Positions 3,301 to 27,492 of a DNA stretch of 27,524 nucleotides are shown piece by piece. Both the position numbers and the translations under genes were made by a program. The DNA is taken from the IMG/VR virus record IMGVR_UViG_3300024254_000027, positions 1 to 27,524 of that record; one strand, written 5' to 3'. Position 1 is the stretch's first letter; each line of letters opens with the position of its first letter. A model generated the notes under the pieces. That model was not told the origin of the DNA. It saw only the letters and a list, made by a program, of their open reading frames with translations, and did no database searches. The stretch is from a virus. Taxonomy: Duplodnaviria > Caudoviricetes.

Positions 3301-3463
3301 AGAGTCTTATATTCGTGCCGGGATGGAAGATAACCTTATAACTGCTTACCGGATGTATAAGGACAAAGGTGTTGCAGGTACTTATACATTTAAGGAAGGA
3401 GAGGTAAAGCTTTATGAGGTCGGAACCATTCTTCGAATCGACATTAAGGAGAAACAACCATGA
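3293..3463 (+). CDS. 56-aa hypothetical protein (not in ORF track)
   Basis: GGAGGAG SD, MSEESYIRAG...KEKQP, ATGA overlap with queC. Confidence 0.75.
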   Translation: MSEESYIRAGMEDNLITAYRMYKDKGVAGTYTFKEGEVKLYEVGTILRIDIKEKQP

Positions 3464-4137
3464 GCAAACCAATCGTGCTCTACTCCGGAGGGCTTGACTC
3501 CACCGTGTTGTTGTGGAGTTTAAGGCCTAACGTTAAGGCGTTGTTGTTTGATTATGGGCAGAGACACTCTAAAGAACTTAAGCAGGCGGTACAGATATGT
3601 CAAACTCACCAAATTGAGTGGGAGTTGGCGGATTTACAGTCAATCCGGGAGTTGATCTCATCTGGTTCTCAAACAGGCAACGAACCCGTCCCTGAAGGCC
3701 ACTACGCAGAAGAATCGATGAAGGCCACGGTTGTTCCAAACCGCAACATGATTATGCTTTCTATTGCGGTAGGATGGGCGGTCGCAACAAAATCTCCCTA
3801 CGTAGCATGGGCGGCTCATGCTGGGGATCATCCTTTATACCCCGATTGTAGGCCGGACTTCTTTGAAGCATTACGAAATGCAATAGAAATTGGAAATGCA
3901 TGGTCTAACGTAACTCTACAAGCTCCCTTTATTCTTAAAACTAAAGCTGAGATTGTCAAATTAGGGCACCAATTAGGTGCTCCTTTAGACCAAACTTGGA
4001 GCTGTTATAATTCAGGCCCCATCCATTGTGGCCGGTGTGGGACTTGTGTAGAACGGCAGGAAGCTTTTGCTTTAGCTGAAGTTGACGACCCTACAGAATA
4101 TGTAGACACTTCCTTTTGGAAGGAGAAGTGTAAATGA
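3460..4137 (+). CDS. queC: 7-cyano-7-deazaguanine (preQ0) synthase
   Basis: SGGLDS PP-loop, FDYGQRH, VPNRN, YPDCR, TWSCY, CGRCGTC zinc site. Confidence 0.97.
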   Translation: MSKPIVLYSGGLDSTVLLWSLRPNVKALLFDYGQRHSKELKQAVQICQTHQIEWELADLQSIRELISSGSQTGNEPVPEGHYAEESMKATVVPNRNMIMLSIAVGWAVATKSPYVAWAAHAGDHPLYPDCRPDFFEALRNAIEIGNAWSNVTLQAPFILKTKAEIVKLGHQLGAPLDQTWSCYNSGPIHCGRCGTCVERQEAFALAEVDDPTEYVDTSFWKEKCK

Positions 4138-4592: not shown

Positions 4593-5370
4593 ATACAAAA
4601 CCGTCGCTTTCGACTCAATCGGCGAATTGGCCCGTTTGTATTTCTCGTTTGACATGAAGAAAACCGCCTCCGATATGGACACCATCAGAGCGTTGAACAA
4701 CTACAACGGTACCACCGAACGGTTAAACATGCTGATCCGCCGTTGCAAAAACCTCCGCGACCAAGGTGGGGATCATCAAGGGGTTAACGTCGTCTTCATC
4801 GCTCACGAGCAGATCGAGAAGGTTTACGCGAAAGGTGGAATGATCACAGCCAAAGGCCAAGCTCCCCAAGAACCAATCGCTATCAAAGGCCTCCCCGACA
4901 TGCCGGGCAAACAAACCCCTGAAGAAGTCTGTCGTGCTGCAGACAACGTGTTTCGCGTCCGTGCTCTCAACGGTCAAATCATCTGGCGCGCTATCCGTGA
5001 GCCTGTCGGAGGAGGGGGAGACTATTGGGAAGCGAAAGCACGGTTTGACTGCAAGAAGATCAACAACGGGTTTCTGCCAGTCGGTTACAACGAACTATTC
5101 GAGGCAGCAAAGAAGGCTGGCATCGAACTCGACCCAGCTTACATCTGGATTCTCTATGGAACTATCGGGATGGAGAAGACGCGCAGTTTGCTCAAATTCC
5201 CACGTCCAATCAAAATCTTCGACCTCGACCACGGTACCGTTGTAATCAAGCGTGAGGTGGAAGCCCTACGTAAAGCGGGTGAAATAATCGATATCGTCAC
5301 CGACATCGACGTAGAAGAAACCACCCACTACGAGAAGTTTGTGTCAGAATTGGAGGCCACTTTTGGCTAA
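4582..5370 (+). CDS. AAA_24/Sak4-like recombination ATPase, apparently circularly permuted
   Basis: YKTVAFDS (Walker B), NVVFIAHE, ADNVFR, and a C-terminal ILYGTIGMEKT...PRPIKIFDLDHG; probable TTG start at 4582 after GGAGG. Confidence 0.8.
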   Translation: MPSKYKTVAFDSIGELARLYFSFDMKKTASDMDTIRALNNYNGTTERLNMLIRRCKNLRDQGGDHQGVNVVFIAHEQIEKVYAKGGMITAKGQAPQEPIAIKGLPDMPGKQTPEEVCRAADNVFRVRALNGQIIWRAIREPVGGGGDYWEAKARFDCKKINNGFLPVGYNELFEAAKKAGIELDPAYIWILYGTIGMEKTRSLLKFPRPIKIFDLDHGTVVIKREVEALRKAGEIIDIVTDIDVEETTHYEKFVSELEATFG

Positions 5371-5569
5371 AATCGACATCACCATCAACACCAACTCTTG
5401 GCCGAAGTTACAGATGGTCATCTCAGCCAACGACGAATTTGGGAAGTCCATACTTCTGGACTCCAAAGAAAGATACGATTTGGCGTATACGAAGTTTGAG
5501 AATGATATACACAACGTACTACGCCCTATCGTCGAGTCTGTAGTAAAATCCAAAACACGAGGACAATAA
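5363..5569 (+). CDS. Small hypothetical protein
   Basis: GGAGG SD then TTG 5363, overlapping the previous stop. Confidence 0.65.
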   Translation: MAKIDITINTNSWPKLQMVISANDEFGKSILLDSKERYDLAYTKFENDIHNVLRPIVESVVKSKTRGQ

Positions 5570-5573
5570 TCCA

Positions 5574-5972
5574 ATGCCGTTACTCCAAGACAATATGCAA
5601 ACTGTTGCCGCGCTCGGTGATCTCCTGCCTGAGGGTTGGTACCACTTCCGTGTAAAACATGTTGAGTACAAGACTGAAGAGCAACGCGTACTCATCCAGC
5701 TCGCCTCACAAGAGGAAGGCACAACTGGTCGTATCGCTTTCGACAACCCACAGGTCAACCACCCAATGGGGTTGTCAAAACTGAAAGCATACTACACCGC
5801 GGTCGGTTACAACCCAGGACCTGAAGGGCACGATCCTGAAAAAATCCTTGACGGTGAGCTGTATGCTTACATCGTGCACAACACCGACGGGGACAAGAAA
5901 TACGCGAACGTCGCTCCCTGGTCCATTCGCAGCACGCAACAAGGGAAGGGTTCAAACCCGAAGGGGAAGTAG
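5574..5972 (+). CDS. DUF669-like single-stranded DNA-binding protein
   Basis: LLPEGWYHFRVKHVE signature; usual position after an AAA_24 ATPase. Confidence 0.7.
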   Translation: MPLLQDNMQTVAALGDLLPEGWYHFRVKHVEYKTEEQRVLIQLASQEEGTTGRIAFDNPQVNHPMGLSKLKAYYTAVGYNPGPEGHDPEKILDGELYAYIVHNTDGDKKYANVAPWSIRSTQQGKGSNPKGK

Positions 5973-6134: not shown

Positions 6135-6593
6135 ATGGAAATCTGTAAGGAGTTCGAGTTTGAAGCCTCACATGTTCTACCCAACCACAAAGGGAAGTGT
6201 TCTAACCTCCACGGTCATTCGTGGAAGTTAACAGTCTACGTTAAAGGCCCTGTCGATTCCGAAACAGGTATGGTAGTTGACTACGCAGACATTAAGTCTT
6301 CCATCCAGCCAATCATTGATGAGTTAGACCACGCCCACCTCGGTGCCTGGCATACTTCCAAGGTTGAAATTGATTGGGCGGATGGCTGTGACGAGGCTTC
6401 TGGAACGAAATCAGTTCCTTGGTTAGTAAAAGACGGGAGTGACAAATTTAACCCTACCTCCGAAAACCTCCTGATCGAAATCGCCAAACAAATCGTCAAA
6501 CGCGGCCAGGTGTTTTCCTCCCTTACGCTTGATGAGACGTGCACAGTGTCGTGTCTGTTAACCTGGGAGGAATTCAATGCTCTCTCACGGTAA
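6135..6593 (+). CDS. queD: 6-carboxy-5,6,7,8-tetrahydropterin synthase
   Basis: FEASH, CSNLHGHSW, GMVVDY, LDH, PTSENL, ET motifs. Confidence 0.95.
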   Translation: MEICKEFEFEASHVLPNHKGKCSNLHGHSWKLTVYVKGPVDSETGMVVDYADIKSSIQPIIDELDHAHLGAWHTSKVEIDWADGCDEASGTKSVPWLVKDGSDKFNPTSENLLIEIAKQIVKRGQVFSSLTLDETCTVSCLLTWEEFNALSR

Positions 6594-7294: not shown

Positions 7295-7559
7295 TCCCCT
7301 CACAACCGATATCGTCGTGCCGACTATTCTAGTTGATAGAATTGCCGGTATGATGGTGTTGTTACAAAAAGCCAATCCAGCAGACATCCTATATGAGCTA
7401 AAGGGTCTGAGGAAGATCGCAGGGGAGATCCAGCAGGAACTGCAGAAAATCCGAGGTCCCTGGGCTGTCTGTCATATCTGCAAACCTCCTTTGAGGTTAA
7501 GAACAGAAGAGCTCTACAAACACGATACGGAGGTTCATAATGCTTACCGAAGCAGGTAA
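7287..7559 (+). CDS. Hypothetical protein with C-terminal C2H2-like zinc finger
   Basis: CHIC-x13-H-x4-H; AGGAG SD. Confidence 0.7.
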   Translation: MSNPLTTDIVVPTILVDRIAGMMVLLQKANPADILYELKGLRKIAGEIQQELQKIRGPWAVCHICKPPLRLRTEELYKHDTEVHNAYRSR

Positions 7560-8265
7560 GGGGTTGCCTATTGCAGAAACCTTCCACTCAATCCAAGGTG
7601 AGGGAACCTACGTCGGCACTCCTATGCATTTCATCCGGTTGGCGGGATGTCCTGTGGGGTTTAAAGCTACCGAGGAAGCAGTTACAGCTCTCAAACCAGG
7701 AGACCATGAAGTAATCCCCGTTCTTGAGTCTGGACGACGCGGCTCACTGTGCAAAACCTGGGATGGACGACGCTTTACCTGCGACACCGACTTTTCCTGC
7801 CACACCTACAAAACTGTGGATGAACTAATCGGCGAAACCTGGGAGAAGCACATCTGTTTGACTGGGGGAGAGCCGCTTATCCATCAACAGAGTTTAATCC
7901 CTCTAGGGTTCTTCCAGAAGGCCTTTCAAAAGGGAATTATGATCCACATTGAGACTTCTGGCACTATCATGCTTGCTGAAGTCTTTCACCACGACAAGCG
8001 GGTTTGGATTACTGTCTCTCCCAAGTTTGACTGTAAGCTGGATATGCTATGCCTCGCAGACGAGATTAAACTTCTTGTGGATGAGAACTTCGACCCGAAG
8101 AACTTCTTTAAGGACCCTCAGTATAAAGGGCAAATCTTCCTCTCACCTATTAACGGTGAAAAGGAAGTCAACCAGAAGAATGTTGAGCTCACTTTAAAGT
8201 GGCTTGAACATTATCCAACATGGCGCTTATCCGCTCAATGGCACAAATTCCTAAACCTGAGGTGA
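7540..8265 (+). CDS. queE: 7-carboxy-7-deazaguanine synthase (radical SAM), atypical cluster motif
   Basis: ETFHSIQGEG, FIRLAGC, CDTD, LTGGEP, IETSG, VSPK, WRLSAQWHKFL. Confidence 0.93.
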   Translation: MLTEAGKGLPIAETFHSIQGEGTYVGTPMHFIRLAGCPVGFKATEEAVTALKPGDHEVIPVLESGRRGSLCKTWDGRRFTCDTDFSCHTYKTVDELIGETWEKHICLTGGEPLIHQQSLIPLGFFQKAFQKGIMIHIETSGTIMLAEVFHHDKRVWITVSPKFDCKLDMLCLADEIKLLVDENFDPKNFFKDPQYKGQIFLSPINGEKEVNQKNVELTLKWLEHYPTWRLSAQWHKFLNLR

Positions 8266-8798: not shown

Positions 8799-9042
8799 TC
8801 CTGTTAACCATCCAGAGCATTACAACGTAGGAAGGATTGAAGTTATCGACTTTATCGAAGACCAGGGTTTAAATTTTCACCTTGGGAATGCGGTGAAATA
8901 CATATGCCGTCCTAGGAAGTATATACACAACGACGTTGAATTCTCCGTAAAGAAACGTATCGAGGATCTTCAGAAAGCTGTTTGGTATATCCAAAGGCAG
9001 ATCCAAAACCATTCTAAGGGGTTAACCAATGGACCTCGGTAA
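8761..9042 (+). CDS. DUF3310 protein (T7 gp1.7-like nucleotide kinase family)
   Basis: DPVNHPEHY, IEVIDFI, GNAVKYICR, EDLQKAVWYI. Confidence 0.88.
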   Translation: MATQKKNQTLSSDPVNHPEHYNVGRIEVIDFIEDQGLNFHLGNAVKYICRPRKYIHNDVEFSVKKRIEDLQKAVWYIQRQIQNHSKGLTNGPR

Positions 9043-9580
9043 AATCGAACGCGGAGTGAAGTTGATCCTGCAAGGCCTCGACTGTGACCTACGCGACCAA
9101 AACTTCCTCGAAACACCCGACCGTGTCGCCCGAATGTACAACGAGATGTTTAACTGTCCGGATGTGGATTATCCGACGTTCGAAGAACACTACAATAACT
9201 TTATACTCCTCCGCGGACATGAGATATGGGGGTTTTGTCCTCACCATCTACTGCCAGTCGAGATGTCTGTCGATGTAGCCTACATCCCTAACGGTCACGT
9301 ACTTGGGTTGTCCAAACTCGCCCGTTTACTGCACGACATCAACCGCGGCCCAATCCTCCAGGAGAAGTTCACAAATGACGTCATCGACAAGATCTACCAA
9401 GTCCTCCCGTCCTGCAAAGGTGCGGCGTGTGTCGTCACCGGGAAACATGGATGCGCCAAGATACGAGGGGTTCACACCAAGGGGGATTTCCGAACCTACA
9501 GCATTCGAGGAGAATTCCAGTCAGATCCGGATCAGGAGAGAAGGTTTCTCGAGCTCGCCAGAAACGGGCACGGCAAATGA
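9029..9580 (+). CDS. folE: GTP cyclohydrolase I
   Basis: ETPDRVARMY, CPHHLLP, GLSKLAR, LQE, HGCAKIRG. Confidence 0.96.
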   Translation: MDLGKIERGVKLILQGLDCDLRDQNFLETPDRVARMYNEMFNCPDVDYPTFEEHYNNFILLRGHEIWGFCPHHLLPVEMSVDVAYIPNGHVLGLSKLARLLHDINRGPILQEKFTNDVIDKIYQVLPSCKGAACVVTGKHGCAKIRGVHTKGDFRTYSIRGEFQSDPDQERRFLELARNGHGK

Positions 9581-11982
9581 ATGAAAAACCCCCATCCTGT
9601 ACCGGGTGTCCCTACTTCGACCGCCCTATGGTCCGAGGAGACGGCCACCCGAATGCCCAACTCTTCATCCTCGGACAATCTCCGGGTGATAGGGAAAGGG
9701 AGTCGGGCAAACCATTCTCGGGCCCCTCGGGTGAGGTGCTTAACACTGCACTTCGAAAAGCTGGTATTTCCCGGGCCCAGAATTACGTTAGTAACATGGT
9801 TAAGTGTTATGTACCCGCGGGAGAGAAAATACACCCGGAGGCGGTTAAACACTGCAGACCTCTCCTACACCGCGAGATGGAGCTTCTCTCTAACTGCAAA
9901 ACAATACTTACGGTTGGTAAGGAAGCTTTTGATGGATTAACCGGAAAGGATCTAAAAGTCTCCCATGACAGAAAATCCTGTGAGAAAAACCCTTCAGCTT
10001 GGCTCCGAGGTGCTCCCTTCAGAATGGATAGTACAGGACAAACTATCATTCCAACTATCCACCCATCCTTTGTCATGCGATCAGGCTTCCTTAACGCGCC
10101 CACCTTTGAATACGACGTGGCCAAGGGAGGAGATTTTGCTGACAATGTTCGAATGGTCCCTCAGGTGCATTACAATCACAACGCGTCTGACGCCGAAGTA
10201 CTCGAATATCTCGAACTTATCCTTTCCCGTGGAGAGTGCGGACTTGATATTGAAACTCCAGAGGCCACTGCCGACGAAGACGAGCTGGACTCGGTGGTCC
10301 AAACTAATATCGACCTTATTGGATTATCAGCTAACGTTGGAGAATCAATCGGAGTACATCCTGATCAATTCCATCTGCTTGATTCGTTCTTCACAAATAC
10401 AAGCCGATCACCAGTTACTACCTGGGTTTACAACGGCGGATTTGATTTTCTCCATCTTGGTAAACGATGGGATCTTCGAGGAGTCAGGCCTGCGGATGCT
10501 ATGATTGGGTTTTATTTATTATGGCCTGATTTAATGGTAAAAGACCTCGCGACAGCTACTTCCTACTACTGCGACATGCCCTATTACAAAAACTGGAGGA
10601 AGTTACAACCGGAGAAGTATAACACGTTGGGGAATTGTTACGACACCTATGCTGCGTTAGAGATTGGACAGAAGGTGCAGGCTGAGATGCAGCGTAAAAA
10701 AATCGACATGCGACCTCTCTTCTGGTCTCTCATGCCTGTCATCAAAGCGGTCGAACCATGGCGCACTAAAGGCTGTAACTACAACACGAAAGAAAGCATG
10801 CAGATGTTGGTGACACTTTCGAAGACCTTGCAAGCGTACGAAACCTGGTGGAGTAGTAAATTACCTCTGGTTGATTGGGGCTCGCCGAAGCAGTTAGTTA
10901 CACTCTTTACCTCAATGGGCCAGAACGTTCCGAAGAAAAAGCGTCCTAACGGCACCTTCACACCCTGTATGGATGATGAGGCGTTGGAGACGTTAGCAAA
11001 GAGAGGAGTACAACTTGCAACCCTCATTCGTGAAATGCGTACTCTCCGAAAAGCCTCTGACTTCGTTGATCTTGCAGATAAAGACGGAAGAGTGCGTACT
11101 CGAGCTAAACTTCACGGACAAGCAGGTGGAAGAATTCAACTTGTCGATAAGTCGTTACAAACAATCCCAGAGACTCTCGGAGGAACTTATCCTCGAAGTC
11201 TTATTATTCCAGATCATGCTGATGATCTCATCTTGGTTTCAGATTTCTCCCAAGCTGAGTTCTTCATCTACGCCTGGTACACCCAAGACCCCGAGTTGTT
11301 AGCTATTCACCAATCAGGAGACTACTGTTATGGATTCTTCCACGAAGAAATCTGGAAAGAGCCGTACTTCCAAGAAGGGAAGCCGCGGCAGAAGAAGTGG
11401 GCACGTAAAGACATCGAACCATGGAAACTTCTTGTCACAAAAAGCTATCCACTTGGATTTACTTACGGACGTAAGGCGGTGGAGTCTAAATATAAATGGC
11501 TCCTTGAATGGTATCACAAGAAGTTTACCCGCGTTGCTCCTTTCCATTCAGAACTCATCTTCCAAACAACGCGAGACGGGTATCTGCAAACTGTCTATGG
11601 TAGGATGCGAAGGTTCCCTAACCCTCGTGGACAACACAACCAAATCCTCGCTTTCCCAGGTCAAACAACCCTCGTTGACGTCCTCATTCGAAATGCTATC
11701 GTCCCGCTTACGGAGTCTCTCCCAAGGTTGTTCGGACCAAGATCGCGAGTACTTTTCTCGGTCCATGATTCAGTTGTCTGTAACATTCAAGGAGCTGCTA
11801 AACAAGTTACCACCGCAACGGACGCCTGTGAACACGTCGACGCAACCTTACAAGCGCCAATCCCAGAGATGAATGGGTTTGCTCTGCGATGTGAGACTAA
11901 GACAGGTCCTAACTGGTATAAAGTATACACCAAGGAGCAATGGTTTGAGCAGAACAATACCAGAACAACTAGCGTTGTTTAG
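9577..11982 (+). CDS. polA: Family A DNA polymerase with N-terminal family-4 uracil-DNA glycosylase-like domain and 3'-5' exonuclease
   Basis: UDG: CTGC, GQSPGDRE...PFSGPSG, NMVKC, HPS; Exo: DIET, NGGFD; Pol: DFSQAE, KSYPLGFTYG, VHDS; start revised to ATG 9577 (ATGA overlap with folE). Confidence 0.92.
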   Translation: MNEKPPSCTGCPYFDRPMVRGDGHPNAQLFILGQSPGDRERESGKPFSGPSGEVLNTALRKAGISRAQNYVSNMVKCYVPAGEKIHPEAVKHCRPLLHREMELLSNCKTILTVGKEAFDGLTGKDLKVSHDRKSCEKNPSAWLRGAPFRMDSTGQTIIPTIHPSFVMRSGFLNAPTFEYDVAKGGDFADNVRMVPQVHYNHNASDAEVLEYLELILSRGECGLDIETPEATADEDELDSVVQTNIDLIGLSANVGESIGVHPDQFHLLDSFFTNTSRSPVTTWVYNGGFDFLHLGKRWDLRGVRPADAMIGFYLLWPDLMVKDLATATSYYCDMPYYKNWRKLQPEKYNTLGNCYDTYAALEIGQKVQAEMQRKKIDMRPLFWSLMPVIKAVEPWRTKGCNYNTKESMQMLVTLSKTLQAYETWWSSKLPLVDWGSPKQLVTLFTSMGQNVPKKKRPNGTFTPCMDDEALETLAKRGVQLATLIREMRTLRKASDFVDLADKDGRVRTRAKLHGQAGGRIQLVDKSLQTIPETLGGTYPRSLIIPDHADDLILVSDFSQAEFFIYAWYTQDPELLAIHQSGDYCYGFFHEEIWKEPYFQEGKPRQKKWARKDIEPWKLLVTKSYPLGFTYGRKAVESKYKWLLEWYHKKFTRVAPFHSELIFQTTRDGYLQTVYGRMRRFPNPRGQHNQILAFPGQTTLVDVLIRNAIVPLTESLPRLFGPRSRVLFSVHDSVVCNIQGAAKQVTTATDACEHVDATLQAPIPEMNGFALRCETKTGPNWYKVYTKEQWFEQNNTRTTSVV

Positions 11983-13575: not shown

Positions 13576-14001
13576 ATGGCTGAAAACTGGGTTAAAGTCG
13601 CACGAGATCTCGGTTACACGGACGAAAAATCTATGTGGGAAGATCTCTACACCACTCAGAGGTTGTCGATTGAGGAGCTGCACAAAAGGCTAAACTACGG
13701 CATGCACACCATCATCCGTAGGCTTGAACGCTGTAAAATCGACCGTCGACCGACAGGAGGAGCTCGCTACAGCCCCAATCAACGTGCCAAACTATTCCAC
13801 CTCGACCAACGGGTTATCTGGACCCTTACCATCAAAGAGTTATCTAGCCTGTTGAATATCTCAACAGCTTTAATCTCCAAATACCGAAACTTCTACGAGG
13901 GAGAGTTTAATGAACTTTTGCATAATTTGCCCTACAGCGGGACTGGAACGATATGCAACACTATCCAAAACACACCTAGTGTTGGCACAGATCAAGGATG
14001 A
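13576..14001 (+). CDS. Helix-turn-helix DNA-binding protein (two HTH-like segments)
   Basis: LY...LSIEELHKRLNYGMHTIIRRL and LTIKELSSLLNISTALISKY. Confidence 0.65.
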   Translation: MAENWVKVARDLGYTDEKSMWEDLYTTQRLSIEELHKRLNYGMHTIIRRLERCKIDRRPTGGARYSPNQRAKLFHLDQRVIWTLTIKELSSLLNISTALISKYRNFYEGEFNELLHNLPYSGTGTICNTIQNTPSVGTDQG

Positions 14002-14713
14002 GAAGTACCGCCAATTCTACCTAGAAAGGAGAGCCCATGGGGATACTATTATCCTGGACAACGGTGCATACGAACTTGGTAAATCACTCGACCAAACCTC
14101 GTTTGCACAAGCCGTTCGGTTTTACTCTCCGCAGTACATTGTATGCCCTGACGAGCTATACCAAGACTGGGAACGTACTTACTCTCTCACGAAGAACTTT
14201 CTCGATCACCACTATGATGAGTTTCGCGAATTGGGTTGCAAGTTCATCGGGGTGCCCCAAACCACCAAAGGAAACATAATGGGATGGATGGAAGGGTTGA
14301 TACGGATGGTGGAAGAACTGCCGCTTGATGGAATTGGGTTACCTAGAGCTCTCGTAACACACTACTACGTTGACCCCCTTACTCGTGTTAGAGCCTGCGA
14401 ATTCCTCAAACGCCGTTATGAAGGCGACCAACTCTACATCCACGCATTCGGGATGGTTAAGGGGAATGTTGATGAGTTAAACATGCTCCGCGATGCCCAA
14501 TGTGACTCAATCGACTCTTCAGCGCCAGTTTGGAGAGCGTGGTCGAAAGGAATTAGCCTTCTTTGTCAAGACCACTTTAAAGTATGGGATGAGGTAGGAA
14601 CCGAATGTGACTTCAACGTCAACTGGCTCCCTTCCCCTGATAATCATAACCAAATACTTATCAACCTGGAGGCTTGTGGATGTCAACTTCAGCACAACTC
14701 GGTAGCAAAATAA
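13910..14713 (+). CDS. TGT/DpdA-like DNA guanine transglycosylase
   Basis: TIM-barrel motifs in TGT order: LDNGAYE, CPD, GVPQ, GIGL, IHAFG, DSIDSS; co-occurs with folE/queD/queE/queC. Confidence 0.78.
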   Translation: MNFCIICPTAGLERYATLSKTHLVLAQIKDEKYRQFYLERRAHGDTIILDNGAYELGKSLDQTSFAQAVRFYSPQYIVCPDELYQDWERTYSLTKNFLDHHYDEFRELGCKFIGVPQTTKGNIMGWMEGLIRMVEELPLDGIGLPRALVTHYYVDPLTRVRACEFLKRRYEGDQLYIHAFGMVKGNVDELNMLRDAQCDSIDSSAPVWRAWSKGISLLCQDHFKVWDEVGTECDFNVNWLPSPDNHNQILINLEACGCQLQHNSVAK

Positions 14714-14928
14714 TCCACGACGGAGTTACCTGTGACGTCCAACGCATCGTTCACTCTTCCACCGTCTTCCAAGACGAGACGGAACTCTACATCCTAGAGG
14801 AGACGTACGCTCAACTCCTCTCCGAAACCGGGAAGATCATCTTCCTGATGTTCAACCAAACCAAACACCCGTTTGTGAATGAAGCGGGGGTGAAAGGATT
14901 AAATGTGAAGGTATGGAAGCGATTCTAG
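14680..14928 (+). CDS. Hypothetical protein
   Basis: GGAGG SD before ATG 14680; overlaps both neighbours. Confidence 0.65.
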   Translation: MSTSAQLGSKIIHDGVTCDVQRIVHSSTVFQDETELYILEETYAQLLSETGKIIFLMFNQTKHPFVNEAGVKGLNVKVWKRF

Positions 14929-15317
14929 GAGTAGAACCGAAGATCAAAATCCCAAAACCAATCGGTGGACGGATTATCGTCCGCACGATTCAGACGTCCT
15001 TAACCATCGAGGAGAAGTACAAAAAAGCGGGTCTCTACGGTGTGTCTGCGCAGAAGGAGAAACCCCGCAACTCTATCGGTTTCATCCTCGCTATCTCGCA
15101 GGATCCCCTAATTCAAGAAAACTTCAAGGTAGGGATGATGGTGTACTTCCCTCCATTAATGGGCACCAACATTCAACTAATGGGGCAGGAATTTCGTGCA
15201 TTGGATTTTAACGATATCCTCTCTACCCTTGAAGAGGCAGAAGCCCCGGAGGAGTACAAGAAGGAAGCTCAAGCATTCCTCCGAGGGGAACAACCAAACG
15301 ACGAGGTGTCTATTTAA
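14913..15317 (+). CDS. GroES/Cpn10-like co-chaperonin
   Basis: KPIGGRIIVR, AGLY, GFILAI, KVGMMVYF, GTNIQLMGQEF, DILSTLE. Confidence 0.8.
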   Translation: MEAILGVEPKIKIPKPIGGRIIVRTIQTSLTIEEKYKKAGLYGVSAQKEKPRNSIGFILAISQDPLIQENFKVGMMVYFPPLMGTNIQLMGQEFRALDFNDILSTLEEAEAPEEYKKEAQAFLRGEQPNDEVSI

Positions 15318-15432
15318 CGTTACACACAACAGGAGGGATGCATGGAGGGTTGCCGCAACATAGCTTCACACCCTCAGCCAAACTTCCGGCAGCCAAAACG
15401 ACAAACAGCACAAACTTAACCGACATCTTCAT
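15310..15432 (-). CDS. 40-aa secreted cysteine-rich peptide (not in ORF track)
   Basis: AAGGAG SD 7 nt upstream; MKMSVKFVLFVVLAAGSLA|EGVKLCCGNPPCIPPVVCNVK: Sec-type signal peptide plus CC-x4-C-x5-C. Confidence 0.75.
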   Translation of the reverse strand: MKMSVKFVLFVVLAAGSLAEGVKLCCGNPPCIPPVVCNVK

Positions 15433-15445
15433 GGGAGTACTCCTT

Positions 15446-15958
15446 ATGTCCAATTGGACTTTATCACTCTGGGTTTTGAAATGCTTGATGGAACTTGTTC
15501 TTCTTTACACCTGTCTCACCAGGGGTGTTAGGACGATCCTACTCCTGGCGAGTTACACGTTCTCCACAACCTTAGTGTTGATGTTAATCCTCACCTACCT
15601 CCCTTCTAGGTTTGTTGCAGCCACACACTGGGTGGATGTATTCGGCACACTGGTGATGATCTTCGTCTTCATCCAGCTTGCCTCGTATGTGATAGAAGGG
15701 AAGTATGACTATCTCCCCACTCTATACATCTTCGTAGGTCTGGTTACCTCCCAGCTGGTGTGTGTACAGCTGAACCTACACCTCTTACCCTCCTTAAGCC
15801 TCAATCGGCTAAACATCCTCCTCTGGATCCTCGGCATCTTTGGGTTAATCCTAACATCTCGTCGCTTCCCCCACTCAGTGTGGATCTCCCCCATTGATCT
15901 TATGCCGACGTCTATAATCCCTCCACATCAATCGGTGTTGGTAACCCATGATAATTAA
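15446..15958 (+). CDS. Multi-pass membrane protein (about 5 hydrophobic segments)
   Basis: GGGAG SD before ATG 15446; 170 aa, mostly hydrophobic helices. Confidence 0.75.
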   Translation: MSNWTLSLWVLKCLMELVLLYTCLTRGVRTILLLASYTFSTTLVLMLILTYLPSRFVAATHWVDVFGTLVMIFVFIQLASYVIEGKYDYLPTLYIFVGLVTSQLVCVQLNLHLLPSLSLNRLNILLWILGIFGLILTSRRFPHSVWISPIDLMPTSIIPPHQSVLVTHDN

Positions 15959-16030
15959 GGTCGACAACTGCACCACCAACGATCCAACAACCATTAATGC
16001 GGGGTAGTTGTGGTTTACCCATTCCAGCAT
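15875..16030 (-). CDS. Small single-TM protein with basic tail (holin-like or membrane accessory)
   Basis: AGGGAG SD; MLEWVNHNYPALMVVGSLVVQLSTLIIMG...RRRHK. Confidence 0.65.
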   Translation of the reverse strand: MLEWVNHNYPALMVVGSLVVQLSTLIIMGYQHRLMWRDYRRRHKINGGDPH

Positions 16031-16078: not shown

Positions 16079-16285
16079 TTACAGCTGTTCAGGTCCGTAG
16101 GTTGCGTCGATTGCTTGACGCAGTTCGAGCATGGTTTCTTGCAGAGTTGCAGCGTAGTGTGGGTTGCGTAATGCCAAGTGTAGAGCTGCAATCCCGCTGT
16201 TGATAGAGAAACTCACCCACCAGGGGAGAGCTACTGGAGTTGGTGCGTTGGTAATAGTTCCGGTTCCTACAACGGGCGTGCCCAT
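16079..16285 (-). CDS. Small hypothetical protein
   Basis: AAGGAG SD; starts 1 nt after the ATP-grasp stop codon. Confidence 0.75.
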   Translation of the reverse strand: MGTPVVGTGTITNAPTPVALPWWVSFSINSGIAALHLALRNPHYAATLQETMLELRQAIDATYGPEQL

Positions 16286-16286
16286 A

Positions 16287-17591
16287 TTAAGCTCCTTTGC
16301 TTAAGGTTCGTCCAACCTGAACAAGAGTCTCCCATCTTCCGTAGTCTTCCGAGAGCTTCTCAATCAGGTCGTTTCTATACTGTTTGTCGGGGATCCGAGC
16401 AGCCTTCGCCAAGTCATACGGACCCCAGAGTGAACCGGCGATGGACTCCCCATGACCGGTTATTGCGACCACGGTACCGCCAGAATCGGAGGTAACCAGT
16501 TGGTCTTTGTCGTTTAGACGGACTTCATAGAAGAACAGGTGTTCACGATCTTTACGTTCAAACCCGCGGATAGGGACTCCACCCTTAGGACGGTATTCTT
16601 CAGAGGGGTAGGGAGGGATCGACAACCTTAACGCCGATCCAAACCCCTCCTTTAACACCATCTCCTTGGGGTAAGTCAACATCGCCAAGCTCGCCAACAA
16701 CTCGCCTACATCGCCTTGGTAGATTTCCAGGAAGGCTGGGAGGGCATCGTAACCAAACCTGGGGGTGAATTCAAGCGCCCAGACTCCTTGCTCATTGACG
16801 ATCGAATTGAGATCGATAGGACCAACGTATCCAAAGCTCCTGAGAGTAGGAGCCATACGAGCGATTCCGTCGTCAATGATGTGGTTGTTGAAAGTACAAG
16901 CCCACACAGCGTTCCCAGAACAACCACCAGAGGGACCCAGATTTTGGTCCATGAGTTGTTTTCTCTCCACAGTGTGGTTAAAAGGGACCATGAAGTCTTT
17001 GCCATTAAACCATCCTTCGGTGGAGATAGCGACCCCACCTTCAATAAATTTTTGCAGCACGAAGTCGGCGGGAGTTGAGCCGGCCAAGCTTTGGAAGTAA
17101 TCCAACATCGCGATCATATCCTCTGCGTCGTAGGACACGTAGGAGTCAATCCCAAGGTCGATTCCTTTCTTCGCTAACTCACCCGTCGGTTTGAAGACGA
17201 GGCGGCCCTCGAACTTCCGAGTATAGGCTTTACCTTCCTCCCAGTCGGTGAAGGATTCAGTGGGAGGGACTTTGATCCCAACCTCTTCCATCAGCTGGAA
17301 GGCCAAACCCCTATCCATCTCTAACTGGTCGTGGAAGACAGAACCACCGAGTACATGATGGCCCCTAGACCTCATCATATCTCCCGTCTTCCCTCCCCCG
17401 TTCGAATCAAACACAACAATCGTCTTGGCGTCGATGAAGTCAGACCATTTGTCTACCTTCTTCACCAATCCATCGAAGTTCTTCTTTGCCCTTCGATCCA
17501 TAACCCACGCGGCCACATCATGACCGTTTTCCGAGAGACGGCGGGCTAGGGCTAGGCCGTCCCCCGAACCAGACATTAGTAGGAATTTCAC
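16287..17591 (-). CDS. PurD (GAR synthetase)-like ATP-grasp ligase
   Basis: MKFLLMSGSG..ALA, LEMDR, VFKP, LQKFIEG, GPSGGCSG, ALEFTPRFG, YRNDL; GTG start with AAGGAG. Confidence 0.85.
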   Translation of the reverse strand: MKFLLMSGSGDGLALARRLSENGHDVAAWVMDRRAKKNFDGLVKKVDKWSDFIDAKTIVVFDSNGGGKTGDMMRSRGHHVLGGSVFHDQLEMDRGLAFQLMEEVGIKVPPTESFTDWEEGKAYTRKFEGRLVFKPTGELAKKGIDLGIDSYVSYDAEDMIAMLDYFQSLAGSTPADFVLQKFIEGGVAISTEGWFNGKDFMVPFNHTVERKQLMDQNLGPSGGCSGNAVWACTFNNHIIDDGIARMAPTLRSFGYVGPIDLNSIVNEQGVWALEFTPRFGYDALPAFLEIYQGDVGELLASLAMLTYPKEMVLKEGFGSALRLSIPPYPSEEYRPKGGVPIRGFERKDREHLFFYEVRLNDKDQLVTSDSGGTVVAITGHGESIAGSLWGPYDLAKAARIPDKQYRNDLIEKLSEDYGRWETLVQVGRTLSKGA

Positions 17592-17593
17592 AT

Positions 17594-17770
17594 TTACTCC
17601 TTGCTGTATCCTTGAGAGACAACCCCAGGGATTGGATGACAGGTTTCAACTTTGGGTTGAGTGACGGTGTTGGACATTAGAGTGCCTCCAACTTCGGTGA
17701 CTTCCTTGGTCTCATTGACCGTTCCCGGGATGGGGTGCGGCTTGTCGTTCAGTCTTGGTTTCATGGACAT
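17594..17770 (-). CDS. 58-aa peptide with two HPIPGxV repeats (not in ORF track)
   Basis: AAGGAG upstream; MSMKPRLNDKPHPIPGTVNETKEVTEVGGTLMSNTVTQPKVETCHPIPGVVSQGYSKE; stop 2 nt before the ATP-grasp start. Confidence 0.65.
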   Translation of the reverse strand: MSMKPRLNDKPHPIPGTVNETKEVTEVGGTLMSNTVTQPKVETCHPIPGVVSQGYSKE

Positions 17771-26063: not shown

Positions 26064-26335
26064 ACTCCAGCTCCAATTTTGAAGTCTACGTAGTTATCCT
26101 TCCATACGAGTAACCACCCCGTAGGGACTCTTCCCAAATTATGGGTTAGTGTGAAGTCTGTGTTGATTACGCCTGGGGTAATTCCCGTCACCCAAGCCCC
26201 GTTAATGTTTACAGGTTTCTTGTTTTTAGCATCCCCGAACTCGATGCCGAGGTTGATGGCTCTTATGAGTGCGGAGAGAAGATCAGCCAACTCCCGTTTT
26301 GATAAATCCTCCCGAACTATATTGTTGACCTGCAT
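25994..26335 (-). CDS. Small tail-associated protein
   Basis: TAATG-coupled; beta-rich THNLGRVP motif. Confidence 0.6.
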   Translation of the reverse strand: MQVNNIVREDLSKRELADLLSALIRAINLGIEFGDAKNKKPVNINGAWVTGITPGVINTDFTLTHNLGRVPTGWLLVWKDNYVDFKIGAGVWTSRQIFLQANVINVNYRVFVF

Positions 26336-27492
26336 TAGGTGCCTTCAACTTTCTCACCCGCAGTATCTTCAAACTCAGGGAGGAAGCCTAGAAGGGATAC
26401 TGCTCCTCCTCCTGCCGCTCGAGTGATTTGGAGAGTGATTAACTCACCCGCTATCTGCACATCGAAAAACCCTGTACGCTCTGTTAGGTCTGCTGTAACC
26501 GTACCTAGAGAAGAGTTTGCAGTCTTGCTGTCGAATGAATCCGGCCCTACACTTGGCCGAGGGGAGGAGACAGTTGCCGTAAGTACTGCAACCCCATAGT
26601 TCTCATACCAGTATCTGATCCGCCTTAACTTCTTCTCAAACCCGGGGTTATCCCAGATTGTGCCGTTGAAGATTAAAGTTCCTGCTTGTTGGCCGTTGAG
26701 GTTTGTCGGGTCTAAGTACTGTGTTATCACAACAGGAGTATTGTCAACAAACGAGAATAACAATCTGCGGATGTTGTCGGTAATAATCCCTACTGGTATG
26801 AGGGTTACCGAAGGTCCTTGGATGATAGTACTTACAGTTCCAATTCCTGCCGTCCCGATGTTCAGAAAATCTAAAGCCAACCCTACACTCGTCGGGTTGA
26901 ACGTAACGTTGAACGTGGTAGTTGTACCTGGGGTTAGAGTTAGAGGTAATCCAGGAAGACCTGTTAAAGCGAAAGGCAATCCTGTCCCCAAAGCGATTGT
27001 GTTGATTACCACATTCGCAGACCCAACGTTCTTTACCGTTATAACGATCGGCGTAGCCGAATGAGTTACGATCGTGGTGGGGAACGTAATCGGCCCTGGA
27101 GAAACATTTAACGCTCCTCCCGCTCCCGGTGCCGTTCCTGAAATTGCTGCGCTGTAGGGAGCATTATCAACGCCAGGAGAAGTTGTGATGTTAAGCGTGT
27201 CATTAAACGTCCCTGCGATAGTAGGGGAGAACCTAAGTATGAAGGTAAAACTATCACTGGGTTTTAAGGTCTTTGGTAGAGCAGGCAGTCCTACTAAACT
27301 ATAAGGCACTCCTCCAACGGTGATCCCAGTTACAGTAAACCCCGTTCCACCATTGTTCGAAACCGTGATTGATATATCTGCGGTACTTCCTACCGCAACT
27401 GACCCGAACCCTAGTGCACCGGAAGGGGAGACTAACAACACTCCAGGATCAAACCCTCCACCTCCTCCGTCAATCGGTGGTGTGATAGGCAT
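26335..27492 (-). CDS. Virion protein with two ASH/choice-of-anchor-D Ig-like domains
   Basis: Two repeats of L.F..V.VG...ITV.N.G...I..I...PF.L.G.P.LP.TL.P...TF...F.PT..G...D.LNI. Confidence 0.75.
   Translation of the reverse strand: MPITPPIDGGGGGFDPGVLLVSPSGALGFGSVAVGSTADISITVSNNGGTGFTVTGITVGGVPYSLVGLPALPKTLKPSDSFTFILRFSPTIAGTFNDTLNITTSPGVDNAPYSAAISGTAPGAGGALNVSPGPITFPTTIVTHSATPIVITVKNVGSANVVINTIALGTGLPFALTGLPGLPLTLTPGTTTTFNVTFNPTSVGLALDFLNIGTAGIGTVSTIIQGPSVTLIPVGIITDNIRRLLFSFVDNTPVVITQYLDPTNLNGQQAGTLIFNGTIWDNPGFEKKLRRIRYWYENYGVAVLTATVSSPRPSVGPDSFDSKTANSSLGTVTADLTERTGFFDVQIAGELITLQITRAAGGGAVSLLGFLPEFEDTAGEKVEGT

Follow-up and report, generated by a model that had tools for sequence, protein, structure and literature searches.

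Agr quorum sensing is built on a peptide plus a membrane sensor and, among phages, the exported T4 antiholin RI regulates holin T, antiholins of the RI type binding a holin and inhibiting it. What is known of peptide communication between phages is, in the part of the published account drawn on here (PMC10075063), of the arbitrium kind: the signals are short and linear (in RRNPP/arbitrium systems the mature peptide is the 4-10 C-terminal residues of its precursor), the receptors are intracellular, and the carriers are Bacillota and their temperate phages. The same part of that account covers ComX/ComP, an exported peptide and a multi-helix membrane protein specified by one locus. T4 RI appears in the relevant portion of PMC8385771 as a phage protein with a cleavable signal peptide and periplasmic action, and the α-conotoxins (A-superfamily, framework I), in the portion of PMC4278219 that defines them, are made as signal, propeptide and mature peptide with the spacing CC-C-C. 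The phage module taken up here is, to judge by sequence, an undescribed variant of such peptide-with-membrane-partner systems; its functional role is offered as a proposal. Among the matches listed in literature searches, there was no paper describing a module or peptide of this kind, whether from acidobacteria or from phages (subscription journals lay mostly outside the scope), and no description of the module in the phage-communication literature.

The window (the whole stretch of phage DNA that was analysed, 27,524 nucleotides) has the module at the meeting point of its replication arm (+) and its virion arm (-), whose ends interleave: GroES (+), peptide (-), membrane gene (+), 51-aa gene (-). 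The features concerned are these:

14913..15317, + strand: GroES-like gene (Pfam Cpn10), the last replication-arm gene before the module
15310..15432, - strand: four-cysteine peptide precursor gene, 40 aa, kept intact in 7/7 related contigs across the site
15322..15360, - strand: CC-X4-C-X5-C core of the peptide; within the clade CCGNPPC, the next two prolines and the last Cys never vary
15376..15432, - strand: predicted Sec signal peptide, residues 1-19 (by heuristics only; cleavage after 21 equally possible)
15433..15445, no strand: 13-nt spacer between the two start codons, holding a 10-bp palindrome (15434-15443)
15446..15958, + strand: 170-aa five-helix membrane protein, the inferred partner and probably a shortened relative of a Terriglobia 7TM family
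15875..16030, - strand: 51-aa single-helix protein with a basic tail, the last virion-arm gene before the module, holin-like by shape only

An earlier note on this DNA had singled out a minus-strand ORF of 40 aa with AAGGAG upstream, filling the gap between GroES and the membrane gene, and all of this holds: the ORF (15432-15310) has the same sequence, with cysteines spaced CC-X4-C-X5-C; AAGGAG ends 7 nt before the ATG; the gap is indeed occupied, the peptide stop overlapping the stop of the GroES-like gene by 8 nt and the true start of the membrane gene lying at 15446. The 40-codon ORF is a real gene. The strong evidence for this is conservation across related contigs; that none of 300 base-shuffled versions of the window yielded a comparable ORF is weak support, the criteria having been chosen post hoc. 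With the membrane protein, the ATP-grasp gene, a 267-aa neighbour and the peptide motif as queries, seven other contigs spanning the site were found (L001, L004, L005, L006, L007, L008 and L017; the count excludes L003, which is the window, and L002/L031, L386 and L387, which end before the peptide). The earlier note had staked its reading on retention of the ORF and its cysteines in relatives, and an ORF of 40-41 aa with 4/4 Cys is at the same place in 7/7 of these contigs. Chance, or a shadow cast by a + strand ORF, is ruled out by this conservation, by the starts of homologues (see below) and by pN/pS. Since the peptides of L005 and L007 are identical, there are seven distinct sequences counting the window's, all with CC-X4-C-X5-C; clade peptides are 55-70% identical to that of the window. 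The 7-codon CCGNPPC core has pN 0.00 and pS 0.50 (all pairs of 8 genes, which are non-independent); dN/dS is 0.18 for the mature part (the C-terminal half) and 0.51 for the N-terminal part of the peptide (all pairs, likewise non-independent) and 0.17 for the membrane gene (6 sequences, pairs again non-independent). By these measures the peptide gene and the membrane gene are both under purifying selection. A homologue search with the peptide gave no match beyond itself, and wider peptide patterns run against viral contigs gave 6 loci and then 119 (58/64 parts), with no new member of the clade or module among them.

An exported signal or effector was the proposal of the earlier note, and it is supported in part: the gene is real and conserved, it forms one half of a two-gene module, and the peptide is probably exported. 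Its N-terminus has a basic start, a hydrophobic stretch and small residues at -3/-1 by rule of thumb; to that extent the "typical" signal peptide of the earlier note stands, while the exact point of cleavage is uncertain: in the window it could come after residue 19 or after 21, every clade peptide offers three or more acceptable -3/-1 sites, and none is common to all 7. A lipoprotein was considered and rejected, the lipobox being absent in 7/7 peptides. The cysteines begin 3-5 residues past the predicted cut, with no propeptide between, so that the mature peptide would have about 20 residues (19-21) and about 2 kDa; it is small, cationic (+1 to +2) and proline-rich, its conserved part is 13 residues holding the 4 Cys, and two disulfides are predicted in the folded form. 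The lack of a common cut site, together with the shortness of the hydrophobic stretch and the invariance of F10 and G16 within it, would also suit a 40-aa protein that is never cut but stays anchored in the membrane as a small subunit of the five-helix protein, its periplasmic head tied by disulfides. This is very unlikely: acceptable sites abound in each peptide, the N-terminal half is the faster-evolving one, and the acidobacterial peptides described below have ordinary signal peptides.

The cysteine framework had been called α-conotoxin-like and the likeness put down to convergence, a judgement that is borne out. The phage peptide has the CC-C-C spacing of the definition (PMC4278219, in the portion cited above), and its best PDB sequence match is the α-conotoxin CIC, at E 0.12 over 13 residues, covering the first loop only. 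It has no propeptide, its second loop is proline-rich, and its origin is a phage. α-Conotoxins are further marked by I-III, II-IV disulfides and by block of the nicotinic receptor. A true conotoxin, or transfer from an animal, is ruled out by that best PDB E of 0.12 and by the absence of any Pfam family match at E up to 1. With the arbitrium/RRNPP systems, as far as the cited part of PMC10075063 describes them, the locus shares a small phage-encoded precursor with a signal sequence and an adjoining putative receptor gene. It differs in these points: the phage peptide has about 20 residues and four Cys, its neighbour is a membrane protein, and no integrase was found. No TPR receptor was recognised next to the peptide, whose neighbours are the GroES-like gene and the five-helix gene; for lack of that receptor, and with a conserved part of 13 residues containing 4 Cys, identity with arbitrium was rejected.

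The longest mechanical + strand ORF for the membrane gene (15338-15958) overlaps the peptide gene. Close homologues start at Met 15446 or within 1-2 residues of it, and the two genes are therefore non-overlapping, head-to-head and 13 nt apart. They are paired in 7/7 other spanning contigs, at 12-14 nt, and are never separated. The palindrome of the spacer yields a GGAG ribosome site on each strand; GGAG is present on both strands in 8/8 contigs, including the window, and the palindrome is perfect or near-perfect. Hydropathy and an AlphaFold2 model (mean pLDDT 76) give the membrane protein five helices, followed by a tail of low confidence. To judge by basic residues in loop 1 and past helix 5, the N-terminus is probably out and the C-terminus in. 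The last 28 codons (84 nt) overlap the antisense 51-aa gene, which accounts for conservation of a tail that is missing in distant homologues. Pfam, NCBIfam and PHROG have no family for the peptide or the membrane protein. A profile of the membrane protein run against 1.84 billion representatives retrieved 10 proteins of 112-188 aa, none functionally named, and there was no match among 50,697 annotated phage records. The protein has no kinase or DNA-binding domain. A predicted complex of its residues 1-145 with the full 40-aa precursor scored 0.06, which is uninformative either way.

What kind of phage is this? The clade is a group of soil phages. The complete relative G779 (49.5 kb) has direct terminal repeats and, by its SU10-like portal and adaptor, is a podovirus. 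Neither it nor the 97% complete G780 has an integrase of PF00589, the family looked for, and no repressor or recombinase was recognised among 45 scanned G779 ORFs, most of which have no family; hence there appears to be no lysogeny decision to control. A search for σ70 promoters between 14600 and 16500 found 0, with 1.5 expected, and is uninformative. For the host, CRISPR spacers of 301 genomes gave two matches of 33-35 nt at 89%, neither inside a repeat array; it is the peptide-membrane module alone that points to an acidobacterial host for the clade.

The window phage encodes a UDG-PolA fusion and a set of 7-deazaguanine genes. The fusion, of a uracil-DNA glycosylase domain to a family A DNA polymerase, is at about 9577-11982 (+), and its best annotated phage match is 24% identical. 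The 7-deazaguanine genes (3460-4137, 6135-6593, 7540-8265, 9029-9580 and 13910-14713, all +) comprise QueC, QueD/PTPS and FolE by Pfam, a QueE-like ORF by eye, and the 267-aa protein, a weak DpdA match (E 0.1). Near the end of the virion arm is a PurD-like ATP-grasp gene (16287-17591, -) that is 89-93% identical across the clade. Relatives at 38-40% identity, carried by other phages (L034-L040), are followed immediately by virion genes; these seven distant relatives have other genes downstream, which is uninformative on the module. An ATP-grasp match in G516 (30%) was discarded because cellular genes surround it. After the ATP-grasp gene comes a 68-aa gene (16079-16285, -), swapped for an unrelated ORF of 61-62 aa in L004 (852-1040), L005 (3632-3817) and L031 (5308-5493). 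Just upstream of the ATP-grasp gene there is a separate lysozyme-like ORF in L001 (6144-6524), L005 (about 5326-5721) and L030 (about 1347-1847), and an ORF of about 59 codons in the window (about 17593-17770, -) resembles L001 6521-6709. The region around GroES is variable and the peptide-membrane pair is fixed: extra small genes are found in L006 (435-764 and 1165-1404) and L007 (2303-2476), one of them between GroES and the peptide. Also in the virion arm, the window has a protein with two ASH/Hydin-type Ig-like domains (26335-27492, -), and G779 (L258 1078-3450) a 790-aa protein of no family with a signal-peptide-like stretch near its N-terminus.

The position of the module bears on the next possibility, that the periplasmic disulfide peptide and the membrane protein would regulate the neighbouring holin-like protein, controlling lysis with no signal passing from cell to cell. 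The module directly follows the 51-aa single-helix gene in every locus checked (the motif of that protein is in the window and in 5/5 other loci), and some 1.9 kb upstream, in L001, L005 and L030, is the lysozyme-like ORF. Yet the window lacks that ORF at this place, and none was found in L031 or L033; the 51-aa protein has no Pfam or NCBIfam family and only one weak, unnamed PHROG match (E 0.033), so that "holin-like" refers to shape and nothing else; no holin or antiholin match came from Pfam, PHROG or NCBIfam; and the Angelobacter copy of the module that was inspected (G782) is close to the integrase end, and no recognised lysis gene adjoins it. The analogy with T4 RI extends to a phage protein with a cleavable signal peptide and action in the periplasm (PMC8385771, in the portion already cited). 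It stops at a mature part of about 20 residues, with a membrane partner of its own and no family match. We regard this explanation as distinctly unlikely.

ComX/ComP, as the cited part of PMC10075063 has it, likewise joins an exported peptide to a multi-helix membrane protein in one locus. The phage locus differs from it and from Agr: it lacks a kinase domain, a response regulator and a dedicated enzyme for processing, and its host would be diderm; where those peptides are prenylated or closed by a thiolactone, the phage peptide is predicted to have disulfides. No sensor kinase or response regulator was recognised among the 31 scanned proteins of the window, and the 170-aa protein itself has no Pfam or NCBIfam domain.

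Bacteriocin-immunity pairs such as SdpC/SdpI have a similar layout: a small cationic peptide with disulfides next to a multi-helix protein that stands alone and has no output domain. One can accordingly picture an exported peptide that blocks the phage receptor or harms neighbouring cells, with the membrane protein providing immunity or barring a second infection. Against this, Pfam, NCBIfam and PHROGs offer no bacteriocin or immunity family match, and the mature part is short, proline-rich and nearly invariant where toxins diversify. Such a pair is as improbable, in our estimate, as private control of lysis.

A different relationship emerges from the CCGNPPC core. Its 22 exact matches in viral contigs divide into 3 of the clade, 3 unrelated signal-peptide ORFs and 16 of other layout. 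The unrelated elements (L023, L028 and L029, amounting to two distinct sequences) each have the peptide directly upstream of a co-oriented membrane gene of 261-265 aa, and their source is named as Ca. Angelobacter (Terriglobales); the L028 record is a provirus with an integrase. CCGNPPC is also present in L151, L167 and L168, and genome G001 has two modules of this type. Of 120 pattern matches in bacterial genomes (12/64 parts covered), 1 combined a signal peptide with a short tail, at a Ca. Angelobacter locus, and among 301 genomes of the class the core was found in G001 only, the 24 next-best loci not being such peptides. The codons of CCGNPPC differ between the phage clade and the Angelobacter elements, and loop 2 has 5 residues in the phage peptide versus 3 in the Terriglobia module.

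The membrane gene of these elements belongs to an unnamed, acidobacterial family (Atlas score 0.96) found in 46/151 genomes of the order and 46/121 of the class. Its model (pLDDT 87) has seven helices and a cytoplasmic C-terminal helix; the nearest Pfam-labelled Atlas structures, which include 7TMR-DISM and HisKA_7TM sensor domains, fall below the bar for naming, and at E 0.001 nothing matched in fold searches with the five-helix and 7TM models. A small signal-peptide ORF with at least 2 Cys and at least 2 Pro adjoins the 7TM gene in 18 of the 57 best-scoring loci (two seed loci and two duplicates excluded), compared with 3/31 other loci of the class and 4/80 mixed loci as controls; by eye, 16 of the 18 look genuine and none of the controls do. 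These tallies take in the unpublished genomes G093, G522, G496 and G003 (L179 is among the 18), and the conclusions do not depend on them. The peptides beside other acidobacterial 7TM genes are highly diverse, with ordinary signal peptides. Two or three near-identical tandem peptide genes stand beside one 7TM gene in L208 and L211. In the Angelobacter-type modules an unnamed third gene of 127-142 aa overlaps the end of the 7TM gene (L023, about 2401-2784; L028, 2362-2790) and might be an output partner; the window has no such gene.

The phage module resembles these Terriglobia modules in placing a signal peptide with a Cys/Pro tail beside a stand-alone multi-helix protein, and in a CCGNPPC identical to that of two Ca. 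Angelobacter elements. It departs from them as follows: 1) five helices in place of seven plus a cytoplasmic helix; 2) head-to-head genes with a double ribosome site in place of co-oriented genes; 3) residence in a podovirus in which no integrase was found, as against chromosomes or proviruses.

Are the two membrane proteins related? On balance this seems probable, and the phage protein is then probably a shortened 7TM relative composed of helices 1-3 and 6-7. As the alignments were deepened, the hhalign E value went from 0.53 to 0.12, 0.013 and finally 0.0033, the final probability being a weak 9.7%, and phage residues 1-91 fell on family positions 3-98, in register from the N-terminus (helices 1-3). 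The score was reached by 0/100 column shuffles and 0/100 local shuffles, and with the deeper alignment by 0/200 local, hydropathy-preserving shuffles, the best shuffle (24.0) coming close to the real score (25.1). It took a search restricted to helices 6-7 to align the C-terminal half with them (E 0.018). In the models the phage helices measure 24, 23, 31, 26 and 23 residues, against 23, 23, 32, 24 and 27 for 7TM helices 1, 2, 3, 6 and 7, and the phage model ends in a low-confidence tail where the 7TM model has its cytoplasmic helix. The 7TMs closest to the phage protein are not the Angelobacter ones that share its peptide core. The phage membrane profile had 0 matches at E 0.01 among 301 genomes of the phylum, and 2 weak partial matches in long frames among 251 of the order.

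The reading that we tentatively favor, at a little short of even confidence, is that the phage pair is a peptide and sensor captured from the acidobacterial peptide-7TM module and signals infection at the cell envelope; the equality of the peptide core with that of peptides upstream of acidobacterial 7TM genes supports it, and the five-helix protein is likely to be what senses the peptide. Because the ends of the arms interleave, the membrane gene would be expected to belong to the earlier transcript of the replication arm and the peptide gene to the later one of the virion/lysis arm. With every gene transcribed along with its arm in this way, the two transcripts would cross each other's gene in antisense; phage antisense units of this general type appear in the part of PMC11087260 consulted here. 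Mature peptide would accumulate in the periplasm and escape on lysis, and a cell with newly made membrane protein would bind it and relay the signal to a partner protein, needed because neither a kinase nor a DNA-binding domain is present in the membrane protein. The output could be, at a guess, the timing of lysis through the neighbouring 51-aa holin-like protein. The fuller statement, that lytic podoviruses of soil acidobacteria communicate by a disulfide peptide made late, released by lysis and read by an early membrane receptor for lysis timing, is doubtful, though to be taken seriously. Several things tell against capture of a signalling pair: no regulator gene was recognised beside the membrane gene, the clade has no apparent lysogeny decision to control, and a peptide of about 2 kDa would not freely cross an outer membrane. 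An unchanged core beside dissimilar partners is also more readily explained by an outside target than by a ligand and a receptor private to each other.

That last point opens the way to the strongest rival: mimicry, in which the peptide would imitate a host or prophage peptide and act on the 7TM protein of the host or a resident prophage, with the five-helix protein as a decoy or sink shielding the phage's own infection. CCGNPPC is identical in the clade and the two Angelobacter elements even though the membrane partners barely align and the codons differ, and other peptides beside acidobacterial 7TM genes are very diverse; because an identical core sits beside very different membrane proteins, a shared outside target is suggested. 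The phage protein also seems to be without two helices and the cytoplasmic helix. But with the core found in G001 alone among 301 genomes of the class, a widespread host target having such a ligand is not evident, and the two phage genes are never apart in 7 contigs. Mimicry is, all told, unlikely.

Should capture of a peptide and its sensor prove to be the right reading, it would mean that phages of a diderm host communicate by a peptide and a membrane receptor, in a way unrelated to arbitrium and with a CCGNPPC "code" in common with prophages of the host group. The shared palindromic ribosome site and the interleaved arms make for an unusual coupling of two genes. The occurrence of one 7-residue core in two independent lineages makes the ligand-receptor idea testable with a single peptide and two kinds of membrane partner, and through the phage module an acidobacterial peptide-7TM family that is large and unnamed becomes more accessible.
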